Numbered from the stretch's first letter, positions 1,978 through 62,081 are shown. The stretch: 64,000 nucleotides of DNA from an uncultured Thermoplasmata archaeon (GCA_963749205.1 CAVVLW010000006.1:129176-193175), one strand, 5' to 3'. Notes: generated by a model not told the origin, from the sequence alone. A program made the numbers and translations.

Positions 1978-3942
1978 TCAGCCACTCCGGAGAGGGGGGT
2001 CTCGGACGCCGTGAATCGGAAGCCCATACTCGCGAAGCAAGGCGACGAACCTGGGGTGGTCACGAATCGAGTCGAACCATACACCTCGGTACCAGAGCCA
2101 CAGCACCCGATCGCCCTCGCGTGAATCCTGCTCGAGGAGTCCCAGCGCTTTACTCCGCTCCCCCAGGGCCGCGTAAAGCATCGCGAGATGGGTTGGGGAG
2201 GTGTACGATTTTGTCCCTCCTCTTTCCACTGCCGTCGCAACCGCGCGCGCTTCATCGGGTCGGCCGAGGAGAGCGTTAAGCAGGGCATGATCGAATCGTT
2301 CGTCCTCGTCGGCCCCCGTCAACGGGGTGTCCGCTTGCTGGAGGGCATCTGCCCGGCGCCCGGCGGCAAGGAGGGCAAGTCCGAGCTGGACGTGGTGGCT
2401 GATGGAAGTAGGATCGTGCTCGGCCTCTTTCTCCAGGTGCTCTACAAGGGCGGTGGAATTTCCCGCGGCCCAATCGACCATCACCAACGGATGGCCCGCG
2501 TGGCCCGTGGGGTCTAGTCGGATCTCGGCCCGGAACACCCCTCTCGCCTCATCGAACCGGTCCAGAGCAACGAGCATCATCCCCAGGAATCGGTGGGCCG
2601 TGACATTGCTGGGATTGAGCGAAATCGCGATCTTGAATTCACTTTCGGCGAGCTGCCAGTCGTGATCAAATTGAAACGCAATATTGGCCAGCGCCGCGTG
2701 GGCATCGGACGAGTTGGGGTCGAGCTCGAGGGCTTTGGCGGCCAGCTCTCTGGCGCGGGGTACCACCTCGCGCATGGAGACATGCTCCCCGGCCGCTTTG
2801 ACGTACAGATCTGCCCAAGCGGCGTAGGCCTCGGCGAAGTCCGGGTCGAGCTCCGTCGCGTGCTCGTAACATCGGATCGCTTCGTCATAGCCCCGCCACA
2901 TCGGCTCCCTTTCCGCCACGAGTCCCCGCAGGTAGGAGTCGTAAGCCTCAGTGTTCGTCGTGGGCTGTTCTCGCACTCGCGGTCGCCCGGTCTTTACGAA
3001 CTCCAGGCGGAGCGCTTCCGCCGTCCGTTCCGCGATATCGGCCTGAACGGCGAAGACGTCGTCGATCTCCCGATTGTAGCTGCTGGACCAGAGATGCCCT
3101 TGCGTGACCACATCGATCAATTGGAGGGTGATCCGGATGCGCTTTCCTGCCTTTCGGACGCTTCCTTCGAGGACGGCATCGACTCCCAACTCCTTTCCGA
3201 TTTGCGCGACGGATTTTGGCGCGGACTTGTACGGCGTGACCGACGTTCGCGCGATCACATTCATGCCCCGGACCTGGGAGAGGACTGAAATCAGCTCGTC
3301 GGTGAGACCGTCCGCGAAGTAGTCGTCGCTCGGGTCCGGACTGATGTTTGCGAGGGGAAGGACCGCGATGCTCCGGGCCTCCCCCCGCACCGGGACCGAA
3401 CGATCGGTTGGCCGTGCCTCCCATGGCTGAATCACCTTGTAGATGCTCACCTCGGCCTTGATGTTCTTCAGTGCGATCGGTGACAACTTCACGAACGGGG
3501 TCGGGACCTTGTTCTGTACCTGGTCGTACACCTGCTGGGTCACGCAGACGCTCTCCGGTTCGGCCACCGACTGGATGCGAGAGGCGATGTTCACTACATC
3601 CCCGAAGACGTCCCCCGCGGCATGCACCACGTCCCCGACGTGAATCCCGATTCGAATTCGGATCACTCGCCCACCGGGGGAGGTCTTGTTGTACTCGTGA
3701 AGGACGCGCTGGATCTCGACGGCGCATCGGGTCGAGTCCAGCGCACTCTCGAACTCGACCAGGAACGCGTCTCCGAAGGTTTTCACCTCGCGGCCGCTGA
3801 ACTTCTTGAAGATGGGCCGAAGGAGGCGGTTGTGCCGGTCCAGGAGTGCGAGCGCGTTCGCTTCATCCGCCTGGGCCAGGGCGGAATAGCCCACCATGTC
3901 CGTGAACATGATCGCGGCGAGCCGACGCCGCGTTTGCATCAT
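1978..3942 (-). CDS. Class III adenylate/guanylate cyclase fused to a TolB-N-like spacer and C-terminal TPR repeats
   Basis: The conserved part of ORF 1978..4284 begins at ATGATG 3942. Cyclase motifs IMFTDMVGYS, TFGDAFLVEF, IRIGIHVGDV. These are followed by IAVLPLANISPD..YFADGLTDELI and TPR-like helices to the stop. Confidence 0.8.
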   Translation of the reverse strand: MMQTRRRLAAIMFTDMVGYSALAQADEANALALLDRHNRLLRPIFKKFSGREVKTFGDAFLVEFESALDSTRCAVEIQRVLHEYNKTSPGGRVIRIRIGIHVGDVVHAAGDVFGDVVNIASRIQSVAEPESVCVTQQVYDQVQNKVPTPFVKLSPIALKNIKAEVSIYKVIQPWEARPTDRSVPVRGEARSIAVLPLANISPDPSDDYFADGLTDELISVLSQVRGMNVIARTSVTPYKSAPKSVAQIGKELGVDAVLEGSVRKAGKRIRITLQLIDVVTQGHLWSSSYNREIDDVFAVQADIAERTAEALRLEFVKTGRPRVREQPTTNTEAYDSYLRGLVAEREPMWRGYDEAIRCYEHATELDPDFAEAYAAWADLYVKAAGEHVSMREVVPRARELAAKALELDPNSSDAHAALANIAFQFDHDWQLAESEFKIAISLNPSNVTAHRFLGMMLVALDRFDEARGVFRAEIRLDPTGHAGHPLVMVDWAAGNSTALVEHLEKEAEHDPTSISHHVQLGLALLAAGRRADALQQADTPLTGADEDERFDHALLNALLGRPDEARAVATAVERGGTKSYTSPTHLAMLYAALGERSKALGLLEQDSREGDRVLWLWYRGVWFDSIRDHPRFVALLREYGLPIHGVRDPPLRSG

Positions 3943-4183
3943 GATCTCCGAACTCCCGCCCCCCAAATTAAGCGCTCCGAGTTGCGGGGATTTGGGCCGT
4001 GGCCCACTCCGCCGCGGCCCTGTGACGGGTACGTCGGCCGGGCGCGGACGTAGCCACCCGCGTCGCCCGGGCAAGAACCTGCGGTTTTGCGTGGTGGGCG
4101 CACTCCTCGTTCCAGCCCGTTGGCCGTTGTCAGCATCAACCCCGGCCTCGAACGCGGCCCCAATTGAACTTCTAACCCTGTGA

Positions 4184-4867
4184 TTACCGGACCATCCCCG
4201 TTCCGAGGATTTGCTGAGGCCCCCCAGTGGTCCGGGCCGCTGCCCCCGCCCTCTGCACCCGCCTGGCCACGAGCGATAGGACAAACGCTACGAATAAAGT
4301 GAGCCCGGCGAAAAAGGCATAATACCAACCGAACCCCGCCGTCGATAAACCGCCCGTGAGTGGAAGGTATCCTGCGCCGTTGTTGTACGAGTAGTAGGCA
4401 TACATCCCAGGAGCGACGAATGCGCTGAGGCAGCCGAGTCCGGTAACGAGGGAGCCAAGTCGTCCGCGGCCTCCCTTCATCGCAATCGTCCGAGGTGCGA
4501 TGAGGGAGAGAACGATGCCGAGGACGCTTGCGAGAATGGCAAAGAGGATCAGGGCTTCGGCTGCCACGTACGCCGTTGGAAAGCTCGTGACCATCGAACA
4601 AGTGGTGGTCCCCGAGCCACTGCTCGACTCGCAGACGTTCCCCCAAATGTAGAGGCGAGTCGATAGTACCACCCCACCGATCGTCGCTGACACGACTTGC
4701 CAGGGAGTGACCAGGCTCTCTAACGTCAATATTAGACCGAGAGCGCTGAGCGCGAAAACCGCCCACCAGTGTTTCTTAAATCGGAGTCCACTGGTCGTCG
4801 TCGTTTGGACCGATCCGTAGGATAGGCTAGCCATCGCTTGAGCGACCCGAGAGTTGCGAAGAGTCAT
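4184..4867 (-). CDS. Hypothetical polytopic membrane protein
   Basis: 227-aa ORF with several hydrophobic helices (WWAVFALSALGLILTL, ALILFAILASVLGIVLSLI, YYAFFAGLTLFVAFVLSLV). No family recognised. An alternative ATG start lies at 4834. Confidence 0.5.
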   Translation of the reverse strand: MTLRNSRVAQAMASLSYGSVQTTTTSGLRFKKHWWAVFALSALGLILTLESLVTPWQVVSATIGGVVLSTRLYIWGNVCESSSGSGTTTCSMVTSFPTAYVAAEALILFAILASVLGIVLSLIAPRTIAMKGGRGRLGSLVTGLGCLSAFVAPGMYAYYSYNNGAGYLPLTGGLSTAGFGWYYAFFAGLTLFVAFVLSLVARRVQRAGAAARTTGGPQQILGTGMVR

Positions 4868-4972
4868 ATGGACCCTTCGCCGAGGAAACGGACTCTTACT
4901 TCCCGGAGCGCAGGCGCAACAAGGCTGGGAAGCGAGTCGCGCTCCCCGAAACCAAGAATCCTAAAACTCGAG

Positions 4973-5961
4973 TCACATCGGAGCAACGGTCGGGAGTCGG
5001 AGGAAGCCCGAGCGCAATTGGATCGATCCCGTAACGCGATCGATCTCGCCGTGGACGCCGTACGCTCGGCGACCTGCCGCCTGGGAGATTATGTACCACC
5101 ACACCTCGTAAATCGGACCCTTCTCGGCGGCCTCCCCAAAATGGTAGCTCTCGGCGAGCCACTCGCTCTTGGCCATCGCGGGGAGGTAGGTCCGCTCGAG
5201 CGCCGCCTGTGGGGAAGTGACCGGTCCGGGGGTCGGGGGGAGCTTGGCCACGTCAAGGCTCCGGTCGGAGCCCGTCATCCCGGAACCCAGGGAGAGTCTG
5301 CGGAAGCGGATGTGGTAGCGGGTGGGGGTCTCGGTCTCCTCGAGCAACAGCCACCTCCATGGGCTCGTACTCGGGAGGACTTCGGCGTATCCGAATCGAC
5401 GCCGCAAGATGCCGGCCCTCCAACGAGCGACGCCTCGGAGGAGGAGATACCCCCGTACACCCCGACGAGGATCCACGCGGTCTCCTCCCAGAGCCCGAAG
5501 GGAACCGTCCCGTGTTCGAGGATGAGCACGATCAGGCACACCCCGGTGAGGGTCATGGTAACGAGACTGACCGCGACGTCGGCGTTCAGTCGGAGTGGTC
5601 GTCCCGAGAAAGGAAGTAGCGGACGGACCGCGTAGTTCGTGAAACCATCGAGCGCGAGATGGGAGAGGCCGCCGATTTCCATCGCGACGAAGTAGAGCAG
5701 TGTCGATGCGTGGGTGAAGTAGGGGAGGTAGGGCACCAGGAAGCTGCCCGGCGACCGCGATGATGGTCACGCCCAGAACCGTGTGCACGGCGCCCCGGTG
5801 GTGGAGCGACGGGAACCACCGAGTGAGGGGGAAGAGGAGGATGTCCGCGTTCCGGAAGGCCGCCCGCGAGTGATCCCGCCGCGATGTACCTGCGGAGCGG
5901 CGGGTCCCCAGATGATGAACGAGAGCAGGTAGGCGAAGATTACGTGAGTAAAGAGATCCAA
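4973..5961 (-). CDS. DUF457/YdjM-like membrane-bound metal-dependent hydrolase with an unknown C-terminal region; reading frame interrupted
   Basis: Pieces lie in three frames: MDLFTHVIFAYLLSF with a TTG start (5767..5961), FRNADILLFPLTRWFPSLHHRGAVHTVLGV (4973..6052 frame), and LYFVAMEIGGLSHLALDGFTNYAVRPLLPF (5275..5736). Confidence 0.4.
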
Positions 5962-6306
5962 TCGGTGGCCCCCCGACCTCGAACACTACTCGACACAACG
6001 GATTATGTTGCCCATCTCGCAGGCCACCACCGGGCGAGGCCCGTGGTTGCAACCATGCTTACACCTCTGACGCTGGAGCCACTTCCCTAGGCCAGCAGAA
6101 ACAATTGCTGTCCGCTCCCGTTTTCACCAGTGACCTCAACTTCCCACTCTCGAGAGTACCTCGAACGTTGCCTGGTAGAGCGGCTTCAGCTGCATGAACG
6201 GCGGCCCCTACCGCGTCCCGGAGCGCGTGATTCCCTAGGCTGATTTCTGTGCTACCCCATGGGGCGCCGGTGAATCATGACGGAGTGACCCCGTTCGCTG
6301 GGCCTC

Positions 6307-7262: not shown

Positions 7263-7482
7263 CTACGGAAGGCTCCTACCCGCCGCTCGGGAGGAGGTTC
7301 CGCATGATATACCTCGCGCCGGTCGATGGTAGTTTTTTCCGATCACGACGAGTTTCGCGCTCCGGGGGAGGCTCTCCCGCGATGGTTCGAGCCATCGAAG
7401 TCGCGATTCCCCCTCGGCCGTCAGAAGGGTTCAGGTAGGCGAGCGCATTGGTGATTCGAGCCGTTCCATGATTCCGTCCGAA

Positions 7483-8854
7483 ATGCGGTACGCCAAGAGC
7501 GGGGCACGTGCACGTCGCGTATCAGACGGTGGGAGACGGCCCGGTCGACCTGGTACTCGGATTCAGCGGGATCTCCCAATTGGAGGTGATGTGGGAAGAA
7601 CCCTCCTGCGCGCGCTTCTTCCGGCAGCTCGCCGACTTCAGCCGTCTTATTCTCTTCGACAAACGCGGTACGGGTCTTTCCGACCGCAACGTGGGGATTG
7701 CCACCCTCGAAGACCGTATGGACGACATCCGCGCGGTCCTCGACGCCGTCGGGTCGGAACGGACCGCACTGTTTGGGACCCTCGACGGGACTCCCCTCAC
7801 GCTGCTCTTCGCCGCGACGTACCCGGAGAAGACCGTGGCGCTCATCCTGTGGGGCGGCCAGGCCCGAAGCCTGTGGGCACCAGATTACCCTTGGGCGAAA
7901 ACGGAGGAACAGTGGGAGGCCGAGATCCGGCGCGATGAGGCCGACTGGGGGAGCCCGGCCCATATCGAACGGGTGACCGCTCAACTCGCCCCGAGTCGGC
8001 TCCGCGACCCCGAATTCAAGCGATGGCTCAGCCGACGGGTCCGGTTCGGCGCCTCACCGGCCGAAGGCAGCGCCCTGAGTCGAATGAACATGCAGATCGA
8101 CGTCCGATGGGCGCTCCCCGCCTTGCACGTTCCGACCTTGGTCATGTACACTCCGGCGAGCCGGGCATCGTCGGTCGAGGATGGACGGTTCCTGGCATCG
8201 AAGATCCCCGGAGCCCAAGTCGCTGAGGTGGACTGCCCCGACCACCTGTTCTGGACCACGGCCGAGGGGACACGGGAGGCGGTGGGAGTCATGCGGCGCT
8301 TTGTGGAGGGGCTCGGGAGCTCGCCCGAGAGCGACCGGATCCTGACCACCGTGCTCTTCACCGACCTCGTGGGTTCCACGCAGCTCGCTTCCGCGATGGG
8401 CGATCGACGGTGGGGCGAACTTCTGGACCGTCACTTCGCCAGTGCGCGAAGAGAGCTCGCGCGGCACCGAGGAACGCTCATCAAGACCACGGGGGACGGG
8501 ATGGTCGCGGTCTTCGACGGACCGACCCGCGCGATCCGATGCGCGCTGTCGTTGCGGGACGGAGCGAGAACCGATGGCCTCACGCTGCGTGCGGGGCTCC
8601 ACACCGGGGAGTGCGTGCTCAAGTCGGGGGACGTCCAGGGGATCGCGGTCCATATCGCCTCCCGCATCAGCGACCGAGCCGGTCCCGGAGAGGTCCTCGT
8701 GTCGGGCACCGTCCGGGACCTCTCGGTCGGTTCCGATATCCCGTTCCGTGACCTCGGAGCTCACCCGCTGAAGGGCGTCGAGGGGGAGTGGCGGGTTTAC
8801 GCCACAGGGGAGGGTCTGCCCGCAACAACCCCGACCCAAAGTGAATCGACGTAA
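7483..8854 (+). CDS. Alpha/beta-hydrolase-fold domain fused to a class III adenylate/guanylate cyclase (LipJ-like architecture)
   Basis: ATG 7483 (MRYAKSG) is followed by a 1-nt frame change in g-run 7501-7504 into ORF 7508..8854 (HVAYQTVGDGPVDLVL). The C-terminal cyclase has motifs VLFTDLVGST, TTGDGMVAVF, LRAGLHTGE, GIAVHIASR. Confidence 0.8.
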
Positions 8855-15463: not shown

Positions 15464-15647
15464 ATTGCGCTCAACTCCTGCCTACGACCAACGTACGCGG
15501 CACGAACGATTAACACTTGCCGGAGTGACAGGCACTGGATGTGTGCCAGAGCAAATGGATTCTTTGCCACGTTCAGAGTATTGTTCCAAAGCCGGTGCGG
15601 GAGGCTCGGATTCAGAACGCCCCTCGGTTCGAGGGCAACACGAGAGG

Positions 15648-16671
15648 CTAGGTGTGGGACAGGCCGAGGGTTCGGTCCGTGATCGCGATCGAGGCCGGAC
15701 CGTCGGCGGCCAGGTCGAACATCGCGCGGATCGCGTCCACGTTCTCGGGCACGACGACCGATTCCTGGTGGATCGCCTGGAAGAAGTAGGCATCCCGCCC
15801 GTCGAGGCTCACGCCGTCCTCCCAAAGGACGTTCTCCATCACGTCGTTCAGACCGATCCCCCGGTTGCGCCCGAACTCCATCACCTGGGGGGTGCCGTCC
15901 ACGTGCTCCCAGGGAGCGAAGACGCGGAAGCGCGGGGTAGTCCGGAACGCGGCCACGACCTCGGCGGTGCCCTGCGGAGCGGAGCGGAACCGGACGTGGT
16001 TGACGTGGACATGCATCAGGGTCGTCGGGACCACGACCGCGACAGTCGCGATCGACAGCTCGGGGAAGATCGTTTTCACGTCGGGGCCGTGGTGCGAGGG
16101 GATGTGGAGCGAGGGTACGATGCCGTTCAACGGACCCTTCTTCGACTCCCCCGGGTCCGCGGCGCGCCGAACGAGCGTGACATCCCAGCGCTCCACTCCC
16201 CAGCGCGGAAGGACCACGGACGCCGCCCGGGCGATCCCCGTCGTGTTGCACGAGACGACCCGGACGCGGCGTCGCCCCCGAGCGCGCGTCGTAGTTCCCG
16301 AGCGCGTTGAACGACACCTCGGCGACCTCGGCCTTCTCTCCACCCTGGAAGATCGCTCGGACCTTGGCGGCGTCGTAGAGCCTCCGGTTCTCGGCTCCGA
16401 CCTTCTCGGGGGTCGCGTCGACCACGACGTCGGCGCGGGAGAGGAGGTCGTGGACCGTGCCGGCGACCTTCAGTCCGGCCGCGTCGAACTCGGAGCGCTC
16501 GCCGTCCCCGGCGATGTAGAGGGGGTACCCTTTCGCGATCGCCCGCTCCGCCTCGAAGCTGGGTCGGGTCTTGGCGACCCCGACCAGCTCCATGTCCGGC
16601 TGTTTTGCGACCGCGTCCGCGACGCGCTTACCGATCGTACCGTAGCCGTTCACCGCGACGCGGACCCGCAA
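15648..16671 (-). CDS. gap: Glyceraldehyde-3-phosphate dehydrogenase, archaeal type II; one frame change
   Basis: VAVNGYGTIGKRVADAV is in the 15415..16746 frame. The catalytic VVSCNTTG and the remainder are in the 15648..16343 frame. The frame change is near 16280. A probable TTG start at 16671 lies after ggaggg. Confidence 0.8.
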
Positions 16672-51513: not shown

Positions 51514-53378
51514 GTGCCGAGAACCGTCGACCGCCTGGAGGGAATCGCCCTCGTCGGGATGGCGAGAGTCGGGGCGTTGGCGTTCTCGACGCCGGGTCTC
51601 GCGGAGAGCCAACCTCCGGCGGATGACGGCGCTGGACTGACCCTGCGCAGCCGCCCGTCGCCCGCCGGCACCCGGGAGCTCACGCTCGCGAACGGCACCG
51701 GGCAGCTCGACCTGCATTTCCCGATCCTTGCCCCCGAGGTCATGGGCGCCCCCGGGACTGGCCTCCCCGTCGGGGACGGCGCCGTTCTCGTCCACGCACC
51801 GCTCTCCCCCCCTCCCGAACTTCCGAGGTCGGCCCCCGTCCCGACCTAGTCGTCCTGGGCAACGCGCGCGCGCTGTGGGCGGACGGCCTTCCGTTCGTCC
51901 GGGCGCTCCGGGAGGTCCGCGAGGTGTACGGAGGGTCTCCCGTGCTCTGGGCACCGCGGGTAGCGCTGCCCCATCGCGTCCCCCTGCTCGCCTATCTCGG
52001 AGTCGACCTGGTCGACACCACCGAGGGCCTGTTCGCCGCAGCCCACGGGACGTACCTCGACCCCACGTTCGGACCGTTCGACGCCGCCATCGCCCGCACC
52101 GAAACGCTCTGCCCGTGCGCGGCGTGCGCCTCCGACCTCGAAGGCCCGCTCCCGGTCCACACCGTACACGCCTATCGACGCGCGATCGCCGAGACCCGCG
52201 CCGCGGCCCGCGCCGGCCGTCTCCGGGAGCTCGTCGAGTCACGACTCACCGCAGAGCCCGCGCTCGCCGAGATGCTCCGCTACGCCGACCGGGAGCTCGC
52301 AGCGTTGTTGGACGAGCGCACCCCCGTCATCGGGGAGGGGCTGCGAGGGTACGTGCTCCTCGAGTCGCAGCGTCGCCCCGAGATGGCCCGCTTCCGGCGC
52401 CGCCTCCTCGAGCGTTACCGCCCCCCACGCTCGAAGACCGTCTTGGTGCTCGTACCGTGCTCGAAGACCAAGCCGTATCGCCACTCCCGATCGCACCGGA
52501 GGTTCGCGACGGCGTGGGAGGGATTGCGTGCCGTCGAGCGGGTCCACGTCGTCTCGGTGAGCTCTCCGATCGGTCTCGTTCCCCGGGAGCTCGAGGACGT
52601 CCCGCCCGCGCGCCACTACGACATCCCGGTCACCGGGGATTGGGTCGACCCGGAACGGGACGCCGTCCTGGCCGGTCTGGGCCACCTGCTCGCCCACGGA
52701 GGCTACCGCTCCGTCGTGGTCCACCTCGACCCCGGGGAGTACACGTTCCTCCGTCCGGCGCTCGTGGGCGGACCGGCCTCGCGCTGGACGATCGAGGACG
52801 ACCGCACCACCTCCCCGGACGCGCTGCGCACGTTGCGTCTCGCCCTCGAAGAGGCGCTCGCCGGGGAGAATCCGGTCCCCGGAGGGCCCCTCGCGGTGGT
52901 GCGGGAGGAGCTGCGGGAGGTCGCGAGCATCCAGTTCGGTCGCTCGGCGGCGGACCGGCTCTTCGCTCCCCCGGTTCCGCTCGCCGGACGCCCCTGGTTC
53001 CAGCGGCTGACCGATGGGCGGGCGGACCTTGCGACCCTACGGGAGGAACGGGGACTGTTCCATCTCACGGTCGCGGGGGCGCGCCGGCTCGTGCCCGGGA
53101 CCCCCCTGTTCGTTGAGGTCGACCCGGCCCTATCGCTGGCCGGCGACCTCTTCACGCCCGGCGTGCGCGGGGCGGATGACGAGATCCGGGTGGGCGACAG
53201 CGTCGTGCTGCTGCGAGGCGGCGCGCTCGCCGGAGTGGGAGAAGCGACGCTCCCCGGCCCCTTGATGCGCGAGCTGGGCCACGGCCTCGCGGTCCGGGTT
53301 CGACATCGCTCGCACCCCCCGACCGACACTCCCATGACGGAGGAGGGACCTCTCCCCGACCCTGGGCCGGTGGTCTAG
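51514..53378 (+). CDS. arcS: Archaeosine synthase ArcS-like (TGT-like N-terminus, DUF5591 core, PUA-like C-terminus); one frame change
   Basis: The N-terminus is in ORF 51514..51849. After about 51845 it continues in the frame of ORF 51924..53378 (DLVVLGNARALW..LAYLGVDLVD, CPCAAC, VLVPCSKTKPY, SSPIGLVPRELE). The last 15 nt overlap tRNA-Val. Confidence 0.7.
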
Positions 53379-53436
53379 TGGTGATGACGCCGCGCTTACA
53401 ACGCGGATATCGACGGTTCGAATCCGTCCCGGCCCA
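53364..53436 (+). tRNA. tRNA-Val (anticodon TAC)
   Basis: Hand-folded 73-nt cloverleaf. Acceptor GGGCCGG/CCGGCCC plus A. D-arm GTCT/TGAC (one mismatch). Anticodon arm CCGCG-ctTACaa-CGCGG. T-arm GACGG-ttcgaat-CCGTC. Confidence 0.92.
53419..53436 (+). repeat. Proximal copy of the 18-nt direct repeat (tRNA-Val 3' end), candidate attL core
   Basis: cgaatccgtcccggccca is identical to 60939-60956. Confidence 0.85.
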
Positions 53437-53438
53437 TC

Positions 53439-53470
53439 GGTATTCGCACCGCCGGGGCGATGCGAATACC
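53439..53470. repeat. Palindromic module adjacent to the proximal core
   Basis: ggtattcgca / ccgccggggcga / tgcgaatacc form a 10-bp inverted repeat, similar in sequence to the module at 60919-60943. Confidence 0.7.
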
Positions 53471-53507
53471 CCTTCGATTTGAGTTCCGAACTCCGAGGTC
53501 AGGTTAT

Positions 53508-54044
53508 TCACGCAATCCGAACAGATAGCGTCAGCCGAATCCAACCCGGTCGAAGTCCGGGCGCTTCTTTTAGTGAAACTCCCCGCGTTCTTGCCATTTC
53601 GATCATCTCATGATACGTCTCGTTCGAGAGGAAATCTTGGAGCCACAAGCGACCACTTACGGCCTGAACCGGGTGGCCACGCGATATCTCGTCGTCCACT
53701 CCTTCGGTGTGCTGAATGGTCAGCGGAAGTCCCTGGCCTGACCAGAGCACTTGCCTGGCGCGACCGTTAGGGTACTCGAAGCGAATGCCTCTCTCATCGA
53801 CAGAAACATCGACGGCACCAGGAGACCACTTCCAGAGGCCCCCGATCGCCGATAACGCGGCGAAGAGGAGTGCGAAAGCTGTCACGAAGAGGGTAACTCT
53901 CGTCCAACCCGGACCCACAATCGCGCTGGCCGCGAAGTATGAGCATATCCCCCCGAACAAGACCGCCCCTCCAAGGGAGATCAGTCGTGTGAGCCGTATC
54001 AGTGCCTTGTAGCGTTGGACACCGTCCGCGGCAGTGAAACTCAC
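53508..54044 (-). CDS. Hypothetical two-TM membrane protein with a soluble C-terminal domain
   Basis: GTG 54044 lies 1 nt after the stop of the giant gene. The helices are LISLGGAVLFGGICSYFAASAIVG and VTLFVTAFALLFAALSAIGGLW. A roughly 100-aa domain follows (VDVSVDERGIRFEYPNG..). No family recognised. Confidence 0.5.
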   Translation of the reverse strand: MSFTAADGVQRYKALIRLTRLISLGGAVLFGGICSYFAASAIVGPGWTRVTLFVTAFALLFAALSAIGGLWKWSPGAVDVSVDERGIRFEYPNGRARQVLWSGQGLPLTIQHTEGVDDEISRGHPVQAVSGRLWLQDFLSNETYHEMIEMARTRGVSLKEAPGLRPGWIRLTLSVRIA

Positions 54045-54045
54045 T

Positions 54046-57000
54046 TCAGGTTCCCCCAGCCACTTCGGCAACGTCGACGACGAAGGCCCCAAAATCCCCG
54101 AGCAGAACGAGAGCATTCACCAGAGGTGGCAATCCATCCGGCGGACCAAATAGGTCTATGATCACGCTGTCCGCATCGAAGACCATAGAGAGGATGGATC
54201 CGAACAACGAACTTACGGCAGCCGCTGCCGCGCACGTAACGATAGCTATGATCCCTAAGGCAGCCCCAACTGTGTCCGACCACGGAGCGTTCGTCTTCTG
54301 AAGCCACGCGTTGAGGACGACACTCCCTGCAACGCTTGTTGTGCCGGCTCCGAGTAACGAGCCCAGAGCCTCGAAGTCGGTGCTGTCAGCTCCACTAAGC
54401 TTCATCTCGAAGGAAGATCCCCCTCCATCCCGAGCGTCGTCAGGACCGCCACTGGCCCCAGTCAGATTCCCGAGTTCGTACCCAACTGATGGTGATAGTG
54501 GGCTCATTTGCGAGAAATATTTCGAAACGTTGGACCCGCCGGCAAGTATAGAGCCTGCAAGAATGCCGCTAACTAGGGCTCCGATTATGAGCGAGAGAAC
54601 GAATGCCGAACCCAGCGACACTCCTTCTATGACTGTTACGACCACTTCTATGGCGACAGCCGCAGCCAGTGCCACCCAAAACAGTGGTTGGGCCACATCC
54701 GACCAGAACCGAGCCTCGTCCTTGGTTGCCGAGCTTTTCGCGATTGTATCATTGACGACTTGTTGGAAGTCGCTCGCCAGCCGGGACGTATAGGCCTCCG
54801 CGGCTGCGATAATCGGTCCGAACGCGATCTTGAGGGCCACCAGCGCAATTTGGGCAAGGTACGCTAGCAGTTGATCCAACGCACGTACGATGAGCTGCCC
54901 GACATGGACGATCGCGGCAGCGGTCCGGGCGAGGACCTGCGCCCCAATCGCCGCCGCTTCGTTTGCGATGCGGTTGAGGTACGTCGTAGCCGCGACCGCC
55001 ACGGAATAGACTTCCCCGACAATGGAGACGATTGCCCCCGTGATCGTCGTCACCACCGCAGAGAAAGCGTTCCAGAAATCGCCCCAAATCCCCCCGGCCG
55101 ATGGCGGCGCTTTATTGTGGGTCGGCGGCCCGTAGAGACCCTGGGAGATCACCGGGGCGTTAGCCAGCGCCGAGAGGACTGGAGCGTCGAGGCCCAGTGA
55201 CGCGACCTGGTTCGTCACGGTCTGGAAGGTGCCGTTCACCCCCGCTGTCGTGTTTGTGAGGAGTGCGGAGAGGAGCAGGTCGAAAGTGGCTGTCGATGTG
55301 ATGTTCAGGGTTACGATCGCCTCCAGGGACGGAGGCATTGGGACGCTAGAGTAAATCGACGGATTGCTGGCCAATCCGCCGGTGTTGTTTGCAAGTGTCG
55401 TCTGCACGACCATCGTGCGAACTTGAAGCGGGCTGGAGCTGGACACCCCAGTCTCCGCGGTGGTGAAATTCCCGGGTGGAGAAGCGATCGAACGGTTCTG
55501 CCAGTACGCCTCGAGGTCGAACATCAGACCGGAGGCAGATCCAAACGACTGCGTAAGGAGACTCCGCGCGGTGGAATCGCTGCTCAATATTGGGGGCGTA
55601 GGATGGGAACTGGGGTACGGGAAGTTCTTCCCTTCGAATACGGCCGTCGCGAACGGGGAGTTCAGGAACTGCTCCCGAGGGAATAGGAGATTGTTCAGTC
55701 CCGGCTGCAGCGAGATCGTGTAGCTGCCACCCCAAGGGTAGGGAATGGATACCGATGTCAACGAGGCCGACGCGTTGATGACGACGAGGTCGAACGACTG
55801 CTCGCCGGTATACCGTTCGAGACCCGGGGGAAGCCCGTTCACTGTCGAGTTGTCGTCCGGTAGCCAGAGATACGTCGGAGTCTTGCGGTCGAGAGGAACG
55901 GTCGAGAGGGCGAGAGCGAGGGTGCCGTTCGGATTCCCGGTGGTGTTGGACCAAGACTCGGAGACGAGCGCGCCATGAACCATGTCGTAGGTCACGTCAA
56001 CTTTCTTGAGAGTCCCATCGAACGGCACTGCGGTAAGGGTGGAGGAGCCAGATTCGTTGACGAGAACCTCGATCTGGACGGTCTCAAACTGAGAGGTCTG
56101 GCTGGACGGGAGGACGACCGTATAGCCGGTGAGTAAGGAGATGCCCCCGGAGAGGCCGACGGGGGCGCTATAGTTAGTGAGCTCCGGCGTTCCCGTCGCC
56201 GTGCTACCCGCGTAGAGCTGGAATTGGGCGGCGTACCCCTCCCCCGTCTTGAGATGCATTACGTAGAGATGGGAGACAGTGACCGAGAGACCGATGGGGG
56301 CAGACGGGTTGATTCGAGAGCCATCTGCAATACCGTCCTGCGGAGCCGAGGCGGCGAGAGGGTCCGCTCCCCAGGAGAGCTTGCCCCACACAGTCATGGT
56401 ACGGTATCCCTTCCAGGCCCCGGTCGTTGCGCGTAGCCAGCCGGCCGCCTTGACGCCGGTTAGGTTCACAAAGGTGGAGAGCGCGGCGGAAGACCAGAGC
56501 ACGGTAGCAGCCCATGGGGAGCCGTCCCCGCTGGCGATCCCGCCCGCTGGAGCCGGAGTCAGATTCGTCCGGTTCTGGTTGGCACTCGACGGGGCTCCGC
56601 TAGGGAATGGGACGTACGATGAGTTCTCGTACCAGTATTCGAAACCGGACTTGGGCAGCTTCGCGCTCGTCGCTAATCCCACGTTGAAGGTGAGATTCCA
56701 AGTGTCGAGCATGTGGCTGCCCGCCGTGTCGACGGTAGTCGGGTTCAGACCGAACTCCTTTTCGATGTAATCGCCGACGAGCCCGTTCGTTGAGTAGAGG
56801 GACGGATCGGCCGTGGCCCTTTGTTGGACGACCCCGCCGCTGACGTTCGTGAAAGTGACCGGCCAGCCGTTCAGTTTCTCCACATCGGTGAGGCCATCTC
56901 CAGAGCTATCTTGTAGGTAAATGAAGCTCAACGGAGCGCTCGAAAGCGAGAGGCTCTGACCATCCCAGGTGAAGTTCCAGATTTCCTGGACAGTGTAGGA

Positions 57001-58467
57001 CGCGTTCCCCGTCATCCCGGTCAGGTTTTCGAGGAACCCTCCCCAGCCGTACTGTATCGCGATGAGGGAAGGTATGGGAATTACGATGCTCGAACCGGTG
57101 CCGCTGGAGAGACCGTAGGTGATCGCACCGCCGGTATAGAGGTGCAATTGATCGTAGAGACTGATCGCCATCGGAGCGAAGATGCCCTCCCCTCCGCCGG
57201 TCTGAGTGATCGAATCGTACGGGTAGGCGATGGATTGCAGCGTGAATCCCTGCCCGAGCTCGGCGAGGGTAGTCTTACCGTTCGATACGCTGAAACAACT
57301 TCCGATAGATTCCGTGACGGTGGCATTGAGCTCGTAGAACGCCGCGCCGAAGAGGCCGTTCAGCCCCGCGGTGAAGGTGTAGGTCCCTGAACTGAAGGTT
57401 CGCGCGGCGACCACCGAGAAATTCAGGGTGGTTCCGATTTCGTAGTACTCGAGTATCCCTAAGCCTCCGGTATTCGAGGTCCAGGTGACGGTCCCTGTAT
57501 CGTTTTTCCCGGACGTGGTTACTATGTTGTTGATTTCGATGTTGTTCGCGATCGTCTCGAACGTGCACGCAGCCTGATACTGCTGAGCCTCGGAGGAGGT
57601 CTGCTGGTTTGCCGAGAGGGTCGGCTTGAGAGTGGAGTTCCAACCACCGGGGTAGCTCACAGTGCTAACCTCGGCGGTGAAGTTGATGTTCTTCAGCGAA
57701 CTGCTTGTGTAGTTTATCCCGGTGGAGAGCACGTAACCCGTTGCGGGTGAGGTTTTGGCGGTCACTGGGCTCGAAGGGTTCAGAGTTTCCGTGCCCTCGG
57801 CCAGCATTGAGTTCCGCCATGCGATCGAAAGCGATTTGTTGCCCGACTGGGTCGCGCTGAGCTGGGTCACAAGGGTGGTCACAAAGGTCGAGCCTCCCGA
57901 CATCGAAATCGAGGTCGGATACCCGCTCATGGGGCTCGTTTTTTGCATCTGGGAGACCAACGGGTCGCAACCGCCGCCGAACCCGTGGTAGTTGACCGTG
58001 TCGAATTCCATCGTGTAGGTGGCCGTCTGGACCGCTGTCCACGAAACCCGGGAATCGGCGGAAAGATTCTGCAGGTAGATATTCGGTATCCATGATGATG
58101 ACTTCAGGGTGACGGTCGACTGATTGTCGATGGTCACCGTGTTGTTGTACGACGTCGGCATGTCGTAATAGTTCGTGCGCGGCTCGTAGACGACCTCCCC
58201 GTTGCAGGTGATCTCCTGCGTGCCGAAGGTCGGTGGCGGGATGTACCACGTGTACACCCCCCAAAACGACAGCTCCGCGATCGTCGGGCTCAGCATCGTC
58301 GTATTCGACCAACCGTCACTAATGTTCCCGTCGAGCGGGGTCGAAGTGTAGACGGGGGCGGGAAACAGGCTCGACGACGGGAGACTGTTCAGGAGCGTTG
58401 CGTTCACCAGTGGGTTGGCGGCGGCGATCGCTTCGACCCCTTCTGCGGCAAGAAGCCAGTCGGACAC
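54046..58467 (-). CDS. Giant (1473 aa) sequon-rich surface protein with a polytopic C-terminal membrane region, unknown family
   Basis: The ORF is uninterrupted, with a GTG start 33 nt after the upstream stop. I count about 35 N-x-S/T sequons. DSSGDGLTDVEKLNGW and EKEFGLNPTTVDT resemble thrombospondin-type-3-like Ca-binding repeats. The last roughly 430 aa contain long hydrophobic helices (LFWVALAAAVAIEVVVTVIEGV, AFVLSLIIGALVSGILAGSILAG, AALGIIAIVTCAAAAAVSSLF). Confidence 0.75.
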   Translation of the reverse strand: MSDWLLAAEGVEAIAAANPLVNATLLNSLPSSSLFPAPVYTSTPLDGNISDGWSNTTMLSPTIAELSFWGVYTWYIPPPTFGTQEITCNGEVVYEPRTNYYDMPTSYNNTVTIDNQSTVTLKSSSWIPNIYLQNLSADSRVSWTAVQTATYTMEFDTVNYHGFGGGCDPLVSQMQKTSPMSGYPTSISMSGGSTFVTTLVTQLSATQSGNKSLSIAWRNSMLAEGTETLNPSSPVTAKTSPATGYVLSTGINYTSSSLKNINFTAEVSTVSYPGGWNSTLKPTLSANQQTSSEAQQYQAACTFETIANNIEINNIVTTSGKNDTGTVTWTSNTGGLGILEYYEIGTTLNFSVVAARTFSSGTYTFTAGLNGLFGAAFYELNATVTESIGSCFSVSNGKTTLAELGQGFTLQSIAYPYDSITQTGGGEGIFAPMAISLYDQLHLYTGGAITYGLSSGTGSSIVIPIPSLIAIQYGWGGFLENLTGMTGNASYTVQEIWNFTWDGQSLSLSSAPLSFIYLQDSSGDGLTDVEKLNGWPVTFTNVSGGVVQQRATADPSLYSTNGLVGDYIEKEFGLNPTTVDTAGSHMLDTWNLTFNVGLATSAKLPKSGFEYWYENSSYVPFPSGAPSSANQNRTNLTPAPAGGIASGDGSPWAATVLWSSAALSTFVNLTGVKAAGWLRATTGAWKGYRTMTVWGKLSWGADPLAASAPQDGIADGSRINPSAPIGLSVTVSHLYVMHLKTGEGYAAQFQLYAGSTATGTPELTNYSAPVGLSGGISLLTGYTVVLPSSQTSQFETVQIEVLVNESGSSTLTAVPFDGTLKKVDVTYDMVHGALVSESWSNTTGNPNGTLALALSTVPLDRKTPTYLWLPDDNSTVNGLPPGLERYTGEQSFDLVVINASASLTSVSIPYPWGGSYTISLQPGLNNLLFPREQFLNSPFATAVFEGKNFPYPSSHPTPPILSSDSTARSLLTQSFGSASGLMFDLEAYWQNRSIASPPGNFTTAETGVSSSSPLQVRTMVVQTTLANNTGGLASNPSIYSSVPMPPSLEAIVTLNITSTATFDLLLSALLTNTTAGVNGTFQTVTNQVASLGLDAPVLSALANAPVISQGLYGPPTHNKAPPSAGGIWGDFWNAFSAVVTTITGAIVSIVGEVYSVAVAATTYLNRIANEAAAIGAQVLARTAAAIVHVGQLIVRALDQLLAYLAQIALVALKIAFGPIIAAAEAYTSRLASDFQQVVNDTIAKSSATKDEARFWSDVAQPLFWVALAAAVAIEVVVTVIEGVSLGSAFVLSLIIGALVSGILAGSILAGGSNVSKYFSQMSPLSPSVGYELGNLTGASGGPDDARDGGGSSFEMKLSGADSTDFEALGSLLGAGTTSVAGSVVLNAWLQKTNAPWSDTVGAALGIIAIVTCAAAAAVSSLFGSILSMVFDADSVIIDLFGPPDGLPPLVNALVLLGDFGAFVVDVAEVAGGT

Positions 58468-58500
58468 GACGTCGAGATAGGTGACCGCCGAACCGAACCC

Positions 58501-60248
58501 CTAGGACGGCACCAGGACTCCGAACGGGCGTTCCTTACCGCCGGTGGTAACGGGGCCGGTGTTGACGGCCGAAGTTAGGGTCGCGCCACCCGCGATCGTG
58601 TACCGTTGGTTGGGGCTCTGGCCCGCCACCTGTTCGCCGATGTACGAGAGGGGGCTGATGCTCACATTCTGATACAACCCGGCCGTCACATTGCGCGTTG
58701 CGTCGAGGTAGGGGAGATTCATCGCTCTGCTCGCGTTGGCGGCGACTTCGCTCAGCATTCCGGCCACCCCGGCCGTGAAAGTGGACGCGCTGGTCGAGCC
58801 GACCAGGTTCGGACTGCTCACGTTCAGCACGCCCTGCTGCATCGCGGCAACGGCGTTGGCGACAGAGAGGAAAGCGCCAGTTTCCGAGAGGGCGTTTCCC
58901 CCCGGGCTCGCAGGCGTTGCCCAGGTCAAGAGTAAACGTTGGAACGAATCGACCGCCATCCCCACCAGTAGACGGTTCCCGACCTTCCAGGCCCCTGTTC
59001 CGCCAGGTAGAGGAGCAGGATCCTGGACGATACGTCCGTCCGGTGAGAAGACCGCGCTCTCGATCGTGGTGAGGTTGGTTCCGGCGGTCGCGAGCCAGGA
59101 AGCGTAGACGTAGCCGACTTGGGTTCCGAGCACTTCGGGGTCGATCATCGCCCCCGCGGTCAGAGGGAACAGCGACGGCCCTTCCCAAATGAGGCCGTCG
59201 TCCGAGGAGATGTATACCGCTCCGATTACCTGCCCCAACTGTAGCACCGTGGAGAGTACGAAGAGATTCCCTCCGACGACCGTGGCAGACACCTGGCCCA
59301 GGAATCCGCCGGGCGTGTTGAGAAAGGTGGATCCGATCGTGGCGAGGGCCGCGGAGACGTTCGTGTCGTTCAGGGGACCGATCTTCGTTGAGCCGAAGCT
59401 TCGACCATCGTTCCAGGACGAGTAAAACACTACTGTGTTCGATGGCGTTGAAGCGACTACTCCTTCCTCTGCCCCTGCCTGGGTCCTGAGGATCACAGGA
59501 TTTGCGTCGACAACCGCGCCAAGGGTAGTGCTGACGATGGTCCCACCCGGGATCGGGAATGTCGTGACGAGCAAGGTGCCCCCGCTCCCTATCGTGGTCG
59601 CGGCCACAAATCCGTAGGGGTCGAGAGCGAGACGGACGTCGGTGCCGGCGACACTTCCGAGGCTCGTCCAGGAAGCTCAGAGCGCTCGCGACGCTCGACA
59701 GGTAAAGATACGACGTCGACCCGCAGGTGATCCCCGCGACAACCGACGAACCGTCGGCGGCGACCACCAGTGCTGACGAGGAGCAGTTGCTCTTCGCCGA
59801 AAATCCCCCAATATTGTAAGGGGTCGACCAACTGAGGGGGAGCGTGGGGCTCGGCTGCCCGGGAGGTCCCGGAACGTCCTGCAGGATGTTCTGAGCGATG
59901 GAAGGGGCGAAGATCCCTTCGGAGACCTCGAAGCTCGTCGTGTAACTCAGCGGGTGTGAACTGACCACGGTAGACGCGTATACGAGAATGTAAAGCGGGT
60001 TGGTCCCGATGCCCTGTCGCTCCGAGCTGGGGAAGGTAGAGCGTCTGGTTGGAAGTGGCCGAAATGGCCGATTCCGGACTCGGGAAGAGGGAAGGAGAGA
60101 CCAGGTAAGGATAGTAAGGAGTTGAGGCGCCGGTGATCCCCGGTGGGTAGGTCGGCGGTCCAGGACCCGAGGCTCTTGCGATACCGAAAGCGGAAAAGAC
60201 CATGATGAGGACAGAGAAAATCGCTAGGATGGACGGACGAACGGGCAA
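58501..60248 (-). CDS. Secreted BNR/Asp-box (sialidase-like beta-propeller) repeat protein; two frame changes
   Basis: TTG 60248 gives a signal-like MPVRPSILAIFSVLIMVFSAFGIARA. The frame changes near 60030 (g-run 60029-60032) and near 59675. Asp-box-like SSWNDGRSFG and SSDDGLIWEG are in ORF 58501..59607. About ten sequons are present. Confidence 0.6.
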
Positions 60249-60918
60249 GCGAGCGCCTCGCCGCCAAGGGCGAGAGGCTCGTCCTCGAGAATAGGACGTC
60301 ACGCACCGGGTCCGGCCGGTGATTGCAGGGGGACCACAGGGCTCGAGAGTTGAACGCGTGAACTCCAGACTCTCGTAGGGATCGCGGTGCGCCGGGTTTG
60401 GCCTGAAGGCCACGGTGTCCTCGTCGACGGCCCGGCACCCGGCTCGAAGCCGGGGCGTCTTGGAGTGGGGCAATGAATCCGGCCTAATGAACCTGCTGTC
60501 GTGTACGAGAGATAGGGCGGTCTGCCTCACCGCTACGGACGCTTTCCCCGCTTTTTGGCCCGAACACCGAATGGAAGACGGCGCAGTCTCCCAAGCGCGC
60601 CTCTTCGACATGTCGTACGGAACTGTGCGGCGAATTAATTCGCCCGATACTGCCTACGGGTCGGCGATCGGTCTGTGAAAGGGCGCGGGCGATAATTCTG
60701 AGTTCTGAGGTTGCCCAACGGGATGTATTCGAACTACCAGTTGAATGCGGTTGTCGGGACTCGAACCCACCTGGCCTCAATCAAGCGACTCCCTCAGGAT
60801 GAGGATGGAATCGATCCGTCGTTGTCCGGGAGGGAGTTATCGATAGGTTGTGAACCAACTATAGCTCACATCTCGCCGGAATCAGTCCGGCCGAGTCGTA
60901 TCAATGCACGTCTGTGAT

Positions 60919-60943
60919 ATTCGTATCGCGGGGCGATACGAAT
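60919..60943. repeat. Perfect 11-bp palindromic module running into the distal core
   Basis: attcgtatcgc / ggg / gcgatacgaat. The 3' arm overlaps the start of the 18-nt core copy. Confidence 0.75.
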
Positions 60944-60956
60944 CCGTCCCGGCCCA
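60939..60956 (+). repeat. Distal copy of the 18-nt direct repeat, candidate attR core
   Basis: cgaatccgtcccggccca is identical to the tRNA-Val 3' end. No cloverleaf lies upstream of it. Confidence 0.85.
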
Positions 60957-60985
60957 CGGTTCAAAACTCGGTCTGAACGCCTTCG

Positions 60986-61461
60986 TCACTCACCCGGCGC
61001 ACCGGGCGCAACGTACAACGTGATGGTCCAGTTGCCCGATTGTTGGTAGATACCGGATTCATTATCCGGCGCAATCCAGGTGGCGTTGCCCCACGGGGCG
61101 CCAAATCCAGTGGATCCGTAGAACGTAACTCCCGTGAACGGCTCTGTCACGGAAACAAGCGTTCCATCGCCGTCTCCACAGAAGTACCTCGCGCTAGATG
61201 GAACGTGAAGCTGACGAATTGCACCATCTCTGAGGTTTTGGTCCAAGTATCGTTGTTTGTAGAATGAAGGGCTTGCATCGAGTTCACCGTGGTCAACTCG
61301 TGGCAGTAGTCGTGTCCCTGGACAGAGACCGGAAGCCCGTTGGAGGCGGGGCATGCACCACCCGTGCTCGCCGGATAGCTCGGGAAAATCCCCAGCACGA
61401 GTATCACGGCGATCGCAACCGCTGTCCCTGCAAATATGGCGTAGAGCGTTCGTCGCTCCAT
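60986..61461 (-). CDS. Hypothetical membrane-anchored or secreted small protein; one frame change
   Basis: ATG 61461 gives MERRTLYAIFAGTAVAIAVILVLGIF (ORF 61147..61602 frame). After about 61300 it continues as ELDASPSFYKQRY...GNATWIAPDNESG...NWTITLYV (ORF 60986..61354). G+C is low (45% on line 61201). Confidence 0.4.
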
Positions 61462-61606
61462 GGGATTCCTAGTCTTCTCGCAAGTATGCCCGGCGGTCCC
61501 GTATATCCATTGCCGGAGGGCGGGGAATGAGATTCCCGGGGGGATGTGCGGACGGCGCACGCGGTCGATGATCCACCGCGAGGGGCACTGCAACCAATTC
61601 AAGGTC

Positions 61607-61647
61607 GATACTCGTATCGCCCGGCGACACGAATCCGCCCCGCCCGA
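61607..61647 (+). repeat. Degenerate third copy of the palindromic module plus tRNA-3'-like tail
   Basis: gatactcgtatcgcccggcgacacgaatccgccccgcccga matches 60916-60956 at 34 of 41 positions (ungapped hand alignment). Confidence 0.6.
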
Positions 61648-62081
61648 CCTTGCGAGGGGGAGACTTGCGTCGCGGCCCGCTTTCGAGGGGAATCGGTTGC
61701 ACGCCGGGGGCCGGACCGACCTCCTAAATTCACCGCGGCCTCCCGGACCCTCATGTCGGGGGGCTCAGGGAACGACCGTCCGCAGCCTACGATCCCCGGC
61801 ATCCCTCCCGGCATGGTCGGGGCGGTGATCTCGGTCCTCGACGCGTCCCGGGACCGCTCCGGCGGCGGAAAATCCTCGAAGAAGTCGAGCGACGCGGGCA
61901 CCGCATCTCGCTCGCGGGATTGAACCGGGTCCTCCAGCACTGCTCTCAGTCCGGGCTCACGGTCGAAGGCCCGGACGGGGTCCGACTACGACGGTGACGG
62001 CCGCTCCGGCACCGTCAACGAACGGCGAGCGTTCGACTGCATACCATACCTATAGTACTTTGTATAGTCTAAATTGAAATT

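Follow-up and report, generated by a model that had tools for sequence, protein, structure and literature searches.

Palindromic T-arm-like boxes beside tRNA-derived cores as probable attachment-site arms of a tRNA-Val island in an uncultured Thermoplasmata archaeon

Several described recombination systems offer points of comparison for palindromes found beside duplicated tRNA ends. In SSV-type elements integration splits the int gene, within which attP is located, while integron attC sites, whose structure is conserved and whose sequence is variable, recombine as a folded strand. Xer/dif sites carry two 11-bp inverted arms around a 6-8-bp central exchange region, and IS200/IS605 elements encode TnpA (HUH Y1) and/or TnpB, have subterminal hairpins and move by single-strand transposition with no target duplication. 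To our knowledge the mobile elements of soil Thermoplasmata are almost unstudied. Tycheposons are built by successive integrations at one tRNA that push older elements outward, and their islands hold scattered partial tRNA repeats and degraded remnants, with some elements being mostly cargo (bioRxiv 10.1101/2020.12.28.424599). Here we describe an island at a tRNA-Val gene in a 64,000-nucleotide stretch of DNA from an uncultured Thermoplasmata archaeon (GCA_963749205.1 CAVVLW010000006.1:129176-193175; the window, below), where two related palindromes, M1 and M2, each adjoin a copy of the tRNA 3' end. Judging from this sequence and from that of relatives, we propose, with a probability of roughly 0.6, that M1 and M2 serve as inner arms (P' and P, respectively) in the attachment (att) site of elements that insert at tRNA 3' ends in soil Thermoplasmata.

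M1 begins two nucleotides past the tRNA and reads GGTATTCGCA-C-CGC-CGGG-GCG-A-TGCGAATACC, with arms (ggtattcgca/tgcgaatacc, at 53439-53448 and 53461-53470) that pair perfectly over 10 bp and are followed inward by three more pairs. M2 reads ATTCGTATCGC-GGG-GCGATACGAAT (attcgtatcgc-ggg-gcgatacgaat), with perfect 11-bp arms separated by 3 nt; its final 5 nt also begin the core. This core, CGAATCCGTCCCGGCCCA, is an 18-nt sequence present in exact form at both 53419-53436 and 60939-60956; allowing three or fewer mismatches, there were at most 2 such matches over 100 shuffles. The right arm of M2 is a diverged copy of the 5' strand of the tRNA T-stem plus the T-loop, and its left arm is the inverted complement. 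The right two-thirds of M1, CCGGGGCGATGCGAAT, match a T-arm-like box that in integrase-bearing relatives is seen directly 3' of the tRNA. A first-pass annotation of the window had reported a 10-bp inverted repeat right of the tRNA (53439-53470), a perfect 11-bp inverted repeat running into the distal core (60919-60943) and a resemblance between the two. Both repeats are in the sequence exactly as it gave them, and the resemblance extends to 22 of 26 aligned positions with one indel; the shared pattern ATTCGNANCGC(N0-1)GGGGCGATNCGAAT has two matches in 64 kb, M1 and M2, where 0 are expected.

Palindromes of this kind might be a generic dispersed repeat resembling repetitive extragenic palindromes (REP) or miniature inverted-repeat transposable elements (MITE), or else the native trailer or terminator hairpin of the tRNA, and perfect inverted repeats with arms of at least 10 bp are indeed about 3 times commoner in the window (7) than in Markov simulations (~2.5). 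Yet within the 64 kb module copies sit at the three island junctions only, none turned up elsewhere in 144 other fetched loci, and IMG/VR returned nothing, whether scanned with the attR or attP junction, with the consensus module or with the integrase family introduced below. Island-free relatives, moreover, have no such hairpin in the trailer that follows tRNA-Val. Scattered copies and a conserved native hairpin were the two counter-observations named in the first-pass annotation, and neither was found; the generic-repeat reading is excluded, and we give this alternative as a whole next to no weight. The non-random part is the presence of two homologous palindromes each abutting a core copy, and not either palindrome alone.

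Contigs from one genome per species, scanned with the core, gave about 40 tRNA-Val loci in metagenome-assembled genomes (MAGs) of Thermoplasmata with the same synteny. Empty sites were seen in loci L004, L081 and L119, where the homologue of the window from ~61795/62044 onward lies within 26-55 bp of the tRNA. The closest relatives, judged by archaeosine synthase ArcS (DUF5591 + TGT_C2 + PUA), which is encoded directly upstream of tRNA-Val, also have empty sites: in L142/L143 (ArcS 89% identical) and L144 (84%) the tRNA trailer, a small open reading frame (ORF) and a PhoU gene run uninterrupted. An excised site made in silico by joining 53436 to 61648 is colinear with the empty sites of L142 and L144, with 70% and 64% identity to these two relatives versus 68% between them. 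The closest ArcS in the protein collection is only 89% identical, so that the comparison of sites is not one within a single species. Because the empty sites are colinear and lack the hairpin, 53437-61647 is an insertion, M1 included, and the comparison supports the reading of M1 and M2 as island-borne att arm elements, neither generic repeats nor native tRNA trailer. Possible empty junctions are CGGTTCAAAACTCGG, if the tRNA end is joined to 60957, and CCTTGCGAGGGGGAG, if it is joined to 61648. The locus closest in nucleotide identity among those from the genome_contigs set, L060 (JBOGRO010000029.1), is on a contig that stops 11 nt past tRNA-Val; this assembly break at an integration hot spot hints at a repeat or a polymorphic island.

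The island had been described at first pass as bounded by two cores, and on this point the description has to be replaced. The locus is a tandem of two integrase-less units with three cores, set between tRNA-Val and its native trailer in the order tRNA-Val/core 1, M1, unit A, M2, core 2, unit B, a third module (M2b), core 3 and host DNA (Table 1). The third module and core, at 61607-61648, are 83% identical to 60916-60957, although the palindrome, ACTCGTATCGC-CCG-GCGACACGAAT at 61610-61634, has decayed to a weak fold (-5.9 kcal/mol, z -0.9) and the core at 61630-61647 is degenerate, with 15/18 positions matching. Because of this third copy the insertion ends at 61647 and not at 60956, and host DNA resumes at 61648. 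GC content is low (0.57-0.63) from 53500 to ~61500 against ~0.70 in the host, and an Rfam scan of 52-64 kb found nothing beyond the tRNA. The exact 18-nt repeat and the perfect palindrome of M2 argue that unit A is recent or maintained.

Table 1. Features of the tRNA-Val island, with positions counted in the window
Feature	Position	Strand	Notes and basis
tRNA-Val(TAC)	53364-53436	+	integration target, attL side; start at 53363 or 53364; ARAGORN; Rfam tRNA 72 bits
Core copy 1	53419-53436	+	last 18 nt of tRNA-Val; core search
M1, candidate P'-arm palindrome	53439-53470		folding, alignment; absent from empty sites
Unit A, 7.5-kb integrase-less insertion	53437-60938		~0.58-0.63 GC versus ~0.70 in the host; GC profile, ORFs, Pfam, tblastn
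202-aa predicted membrane protein, last gene of unit A	53508-54116	-	no Pfam/PHROG family
Probable giant NxS/T-rich surface protein gene, unit A cargo	54046-60204	-	translations, colinear homologue
Candidate P-arm region	60728-60856	+	motif enrichment; alignment of distal junctions
M2, candidate P-arm palindrome	60919-60943		folding, family alignment, nhmmer
Core copy 2, junction of unit A and unit B	60939-60956	+	18/18 identical to tRNA 3' end
Unit B, 0.67 kb, older	60957-61629		ORFs, repeat search; low GC until ~61500
Small signal-anchored protein gene, unit B	~60986-61461	-	apparently frameshifted
Decayed third module and degenerate core 3	61607-61647	+	repeat family D4, 83%; excised-site alignment

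The same arrangement recurs at tRNA-Val in other Thermoplasmata MAGs and metagenomes. When the fetched loci were searched for degenerate cores and then with an nhmmer profile, 12 distinct module-plus-core junctions were obtained, in L032 (3, about 1 kb apart), L080 (2), L122, L123, L120, L039, L085 and the window (2), together with three modules that have no core after them (L121, L126 and M1). Their consensus is (CACTTTCCAC)GATATTCGAACCGCC-s-GGCGGTTCGAAT, followed by CCGTCCCGGCCCA; as in M2, the right arm corresponds to the T-loop and the 5' strand of the T-stem of the tRNA, and its inverted complement makes up the left arm exactly. Within the T-loop many junctions depart from the tRNA sequence (TTCGAGA versus TTCGAAT), which rules out a crossover there or at the centre of the palindrome. 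Since the 13 nt CCGTCCCGGCCCA are all that the tRNA shares with every junction, strand exchange would be placed within them, outside the palindrome.

Conservation is not limited to the palindrome. About 100 nt upstream of the module can be aligned between loci, and this putative P arm holds inverted T-loop-like motifs at 4.2/kb versus a background of 0.72/kb (~6-fold), often 60-65 nt before the module. In the window three more such motifs are found, TTCGAAC at 60728, TCGAACC at 60761 and TGAACC at 60851, and the region includes a block, TGAACCAAC..TCACATCTCGCCGGAA, conserved with other distal junctions. It could be argued that all of this is a neutral by-product, with a near-palindromic T-arm (TTCGAA) leaving functionless inverted fragments through imprecise recombination or local duplications; the right arm is clearly T-arm-derived, the completeness of the palindrome varies among loci from none to full, and the old copy at 61610-61634 has decayed. 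However, the left arm and the ~100 nt of P arm are conserved across MAGs in which the flanking genes are only ~65-75% identical, the proximal box described below is kept across five tRNA targets, and M2 remains a perfect 11-bp palindrome despite two stem pairs that are off the family consensus. We consider a purely neutral origin quite improbable.

The units between these junctions also lack an integrase, and their content is varied, with genes of a defence or addiction type in L032 and L085. L032 (tRNA-oriented 4058-6220) has two successive ~1-kb units, each with a MntA/HepT pair (nucleotidyltransferase + HEPN RNase) carrying an N-terminal zinc ribbon; the unit at 497-3851 in L085 encodes DUF488 and PIN proteins, and the units of L080 encode secreted proteins. 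L122 and L080 (L080 1-1920) are 89% identical from the host flank through the tRNA, first unit and module plus core to ~60 nt beyond, and are then unrelated, a pattern suggestive of mosaicism at the level of units, the breakpoint falling shortly after the junction.

Some arrays are made up of ~1-kb units that contain one or two genes and terminate in a module and core, and two of these units carry MntA/HepT pairs. Such arrays raise the question of whether the recombinase reads a hairpin and not a duplex, as folded single-stranded or cruciform DNA, the integrase-less units then being cassettes at a tRNA-anchored platform. In the folding check proposed at first pass, both modules fold far better than shuffles (z -3.7 to -4.8), M1 as single-stranded DNA at -12.8 kcal/mol on the + strand and -14.6 on the - strand (z -3.7 and -4.6) and M2 at -11.1 kcal/mol (z -4.5 to -4.8), and the rejoined island ends fold as two hairpins around the core (-25.2 kcal/mol, z -3.9). 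In a 14-sequence alignment the stem is 83.7% paired, and this is register-specific (46% or less when slid). Double, compensatory changes are found at two stem pairs, 14-29 (A:T, T:A, C:G) and 16-27 (C:G, T:A), and an integron integrase is among the top structural matches of the candidate recombinase. Nevertheless, the covariation score, paired fraction and number of compensated pairs all fall within column shuffles (120/500, 176/500 and 432/500, respectively), and because no covariation measure exceeds its shuffled controls we do not claim structural selection. The double changes derive from about two events, all in the window locus, and a C.A-type mismatch at pair 16-27 is present in 9/14 copies. 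Unlike attC, moreover, the sites keep their sequence, at a mean column identity of 79%, and the repeat that every junction has lies outside the hairpin, which puts the crossover there too. XerA, Cre and lambda Int are structural matches of about the same quality as IntI. Recognition of a hairpin or cruciform, which covariation does not support, is in our view unlikely.

A candidate for the recombinase comes from relatives. Past tRNA-Val, L054 (=L127) and L013 have a half module (ccttGCCCCGCGATACGAATcc; tcacGCGGGGCGGTCTGAATATcc) and then an ORF of ~450 aa reading away from the tRNA. This protein had no match in Pfam, NCBIfam, PHROGs or PDB sequences, and the profile of its family, here called P0001, gave against PDB only a marginal match to archaeal XerA (E 0.04). 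At least 226 homologues were found, almost exclusively in Thermoplasmata MAGs or soil/peat metagenomes, and a few of these proteins carry the JGI label 'integrase'. Across an alignment of 43 members R154, K197, Y287-x-x-R290, H317 and Y325 are invariant; these are the catalytic residues of tyrosine recombinases, except that Tyr stands in for the first His. An AlphaFold2 model (mean predicted local confidence, pLDDT, 83) matched XerA, VchIntI (the Vibrio integron integrase), Brujita Int, XerH, Cre and lambda Int in Foldseek, with E down to 1e-6 and probability 1.00, and with these residues and this model the protein looks like a tyrosine recombinase with a predicted two-domain fold. The first-pass annotation could assign the site to no archaeal integrase family; the family is indeed uncharacterised, and our literature search found no description of it or of these sites, but a candidate can now be named from relatives.

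Only the related loci L127-L138 and L145 carry an integrase gene of their own, in contexts that mark genuine integrated elements. At tRNA-Val the order is helicase-UbiD-UbiA-ArcS-tRNA-Val, then int, intact and beside attL, and then plasmid- or virus-like genes (DUF87-like ATPase, Fic, methyltransferases, primase-helicase, TraG), while other members of the family follow tRNA-Arg, a Leu-like tRNA or intron-containing tRNAs. In 7/8 integrase-bearing loci examined a T-arm-like box, sCCsGGCGrTwCGAAT, lies 3' of the tRNA (Val, Arg, Leu-like and others) and ~50-60 nt upstream of the ~450-aa gene. The order in these 7 loci is tRNA, 2-6 nt, a C-rich run, the box, an AT-rich TATA-like motif and, ~30 nt on, the start codon; elements targeting five different tRNAs have kept the box. 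The more distant L135 has a short palindrome, CTCTC-CCC-GAGAG, followed by TTAATA, in its place. M1 and the L121 module correspond to this box plus 11 extra nucleotides on the left, which complete the palindrome.

The position of the box makes it reasonable to ask whether the modules act in transcription or as RNA, either as operators or insulators of an integrase promoter or as 3'-end hairpins that shield the tRNA from antisense read-through. In relatives the TATA-like motif (AAATAC, ATATTAA, AAATAG) directly follows the box, and the integrase start codon comes ~30 nt later. Two minus-strand genes of the window stop just short of the modules, the 202-aa gene 38 nt from M1 and the unit B gene 43 nt from M2, and on that strand the M1 mismatch becomes a G.T pair. 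Archaeal termination relies on T tracts, however, and neither hairpin is followed by an oligo-T tract on either strand. The window, further, has no integrase gene to regulate, the register of module to core is fixed whatever the orientation of the neighbouring gene, and no Rfam family was matched. A role of this sort as the primary function is, in our estimation, doubtful.

We therefore return to the attachment-site reading, under which M1 and M2 are probably arm boxes of an att site and candidate recombinase-binding sites. The functional unit would be a 12-nt T-arm-like box, GGCGRTWCGAAT, a mimic of the T-stem 5' strand and T-loop of the tRNA. On the distal side the box would continue the tRNA-derived core and be preceded by its own inverted copy, giving M2; on the proximal side it would stand 2-6 nt after the tRNA, preceded in the window and L121 by an inverted copy, giving M1. 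These boxes may be duplex-DNA binding sites for the divergent tyrosine integrase and/or a partner protein, and once bound may build the attP, attL and attR complexes, with strand exchange taking place inside the 13 nt. Lying just upstream of a promoter-like motif of the integrase gene, the proximal box may double as an operator. The units in the window would have lost their integrase, or would move only with one supplied in trans.

Several observations weigh against this proposal. No integrase ORF was found in 53437-61647 or across the rejoined ends (ORFs ≤81 aa), and tblastn with the candidate family found nothing in the 64-kb window; because the units carry no integrase, the island is either decayed or mobilised in trans. 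The inner-arm spacing from M2 to M1, 17-19 bp, is too long for two core-type sites with a classical overlap of 6-8 bp. No second core was detected within 10 kb downstream of int in L127-L129, L131 and L133-L136, in L138 no tRNA lies upstream and there is a single copy of the presumed core, and the L145 contig ends 1.3 kb after int. No integrase-bearing element was recovered with both its ends, and the integrase family is tied to M2-type distal arms through their common tRNA-Val target and box sequence. Finally, in most related units the proximal side holds only half of a box, or else a GAATAT motif, so full symmetry is not a requirement. The first-pass picture of module, core and module on joining the island ends is accordingly kept in part: the joined sequence (M2-core-M1), ...GGGGCGATACGAATCCGTCCCGGCCCATCGGTATTCGCACC..., rebuilds that layout, and L121, with tRNA, module, a 2.35-kb unit and a distal module, repeats it, but only a minority of related sites are fully symmetric. 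Likewise, of its suggestion that the modules are recombinase arm or binding sites, or structured DNA or RNA, the part supported is that of att arm elements borne by the island.

A few other sequences resemble att junctions. In the window, a weak nhmmer match to the module profile (E 0.03) at 15607-15650 on the minus strand consists of a hairpin, CCCTCG-AAC-CGAGGG, and then GCGTTCTGAATCCGAGCCTCCCGCACC, resembling the 3' part of a tRNA, within a 1-kb GC dip (0.62); from its sequence it may be a remnant att junction for a different tRNA. L010, L023 and L033 have a different conserved sequence just 3' of tRNA-Val, ..CCGGGGGGTAKTACCAATT...TTGCACTACC, and the reverse complement of this sequence lies at 9870-9945 in L138, upstream of the integrase-family gene. 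There a non-tRNA 'core', GCGCGGCCATGCCCA, adjoins a module with a different palindromic stem, TACTGCC-C-GGCAGTA, and the region may be a free attP or a tandem junction.

The cargo of unit A is probably one giant surface protein gene, of ~1,950-2,050 aa with C-terminal transmembrane segments. It is broken into ORFs at 54046-58467 (1473 aa) and 58501-59607 (368 aa) and an N-terminal piece from 59968 or ~60204, all colinear with a 1,944-aa homologue, P0121, in L140. L141 has 89% nucleotide identity over 56357-60513, with neither a tRNA nor an att site nearby, and the L039 island holds a homologue of the 368-aa ORF. The disruptions of frame, in this gene and in that of unit B, reflect either pseudogenes (decay) or long-read assembly indels. 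No island protein could be placed in a Pfam or PHROG family, and none of the island ORFs tested matched a Pfam transposase. Elsewhere in the window, proteins with adenylate/guanylate cyclase domains are encoded at 1978-4287 and 7472-8854, within the lower-GC first 10 kb; one has TPR repeats and the other is fused to an alpha/beta hydrolase, which is unusual for an archaeon.

The locus provides a testable att-site architecture, with T-arm-mimicking palindromic boxes on either side of a 13-18-nt tRNA-derived core. Such islands are likely to be unannotated in MAG surveys because standard domain models miss the integrase family. If the boxes are the recombinase recognition element, one family could retarget many tRNAs, the invariant T-loop being read while the acceptor-stem core gives specificity, and if the cargo moves as cassettes in trans, surface protein and toxin-antitoxin genes would have a new route of gene flow among archaea.

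Among described systems, integrons share with this locus short units with foldable imperfect palindromes, a tyrosine recombinase and toxin-antitoxin cassettes, including in the archaeal integrons (PMC9668308). It is conceivable, though we would not favour it, that tRNA-Val anchors an integron-like cassette platform, at which a trans-acting, Pfam-invisible tyrosine recombinase captures, stacks and shuffles units by reading the T-arm-like hairpin, possibly in folded form. The units of such a platform, holding one gene or a few (surface proteins, MntA/HepT pairs or PIN/DUF488), would each end in a hairpin-forming T-arm mimic and the 13-nt core, an outcome to which we attach a low likelihood. The locus nevertheless does not look like an integron: there is no intI or attI beside the array, which starts at tRNA-Val after the host ArcS, and the sites, unlike attC, are conserved in sequence, contain a tRNA fragment, have an inferred crossover outside the hairpin and show no significant covariation. 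SSV-type ('type I') elements share the archaeal host, the 3' part of a tRNA as target and a tyrosine recombinase, and the first-pass annotation had proposed comparing their att sites, but no split integrase emerged: the rejoined junction has no ORF above the 81-aa limit given above, there is no int(N)/int(C), and the int of relatives is intact beside attL. IS200/IS605 is likewise set aside by the absence of a Pfam transposase match among the island ORFs tested and by the 18-nt direct repeat, and Xer/dif modules (IMEX, pdif) by the 11-3-11 structure of M2, with the shared sequence 3' of the palindrome and the crossover outside it.

The nearer parallels are with elements that use tRNA genes in a conventional manner. 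Elements with a non-partitioned archaeal tyrosine integrase of pNOB8 type ('type II'), or with a lambda-like heterobivalent integrase that uses arm sites, also insert at a tRNA 3' end, of which a direct-repeat copy results. As in them, the core has complex arms on its flanks that extend over ~100 nt or more and, in relatives, int is intact next to attL; the box overlapping the integrase promoter in relatives also recalls the autoregulated intS of KplE1 (PMC2951348). The locus differs from them in that the integrase has no Pfam, NCBIfam or PHROG match and is found almost only in Thermoplasmata, that the window units are integrase-less, and that the arm boxes mimic the tRNA T-arm and are paired as core-abutting palindromes. 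The window closely parallels tycheposon islands in its tandem accretion, tRNA fragments, remnants lying outward and content that is mostly cargo. In contrast to tycheposons, the host is archaeal, the recombinase family is different, several arrays consist purely of units that lack an integrase and measure 1 kb or a few kb, and each partial tRNA is preceded by a conserved inverted complement that makes a hairpin-capable module. The overall behaviour is thus ordinary for integrative elements, namely insertion at a tRNA 3' end, duplicated fragments, tandem accretion and a tyrosine recombinase; what is new here is an integrase family unseen by standard models, T-arm-mimicking palindromic boxes that abut the core on one side or on both, and arrays made only of integrase-less units.

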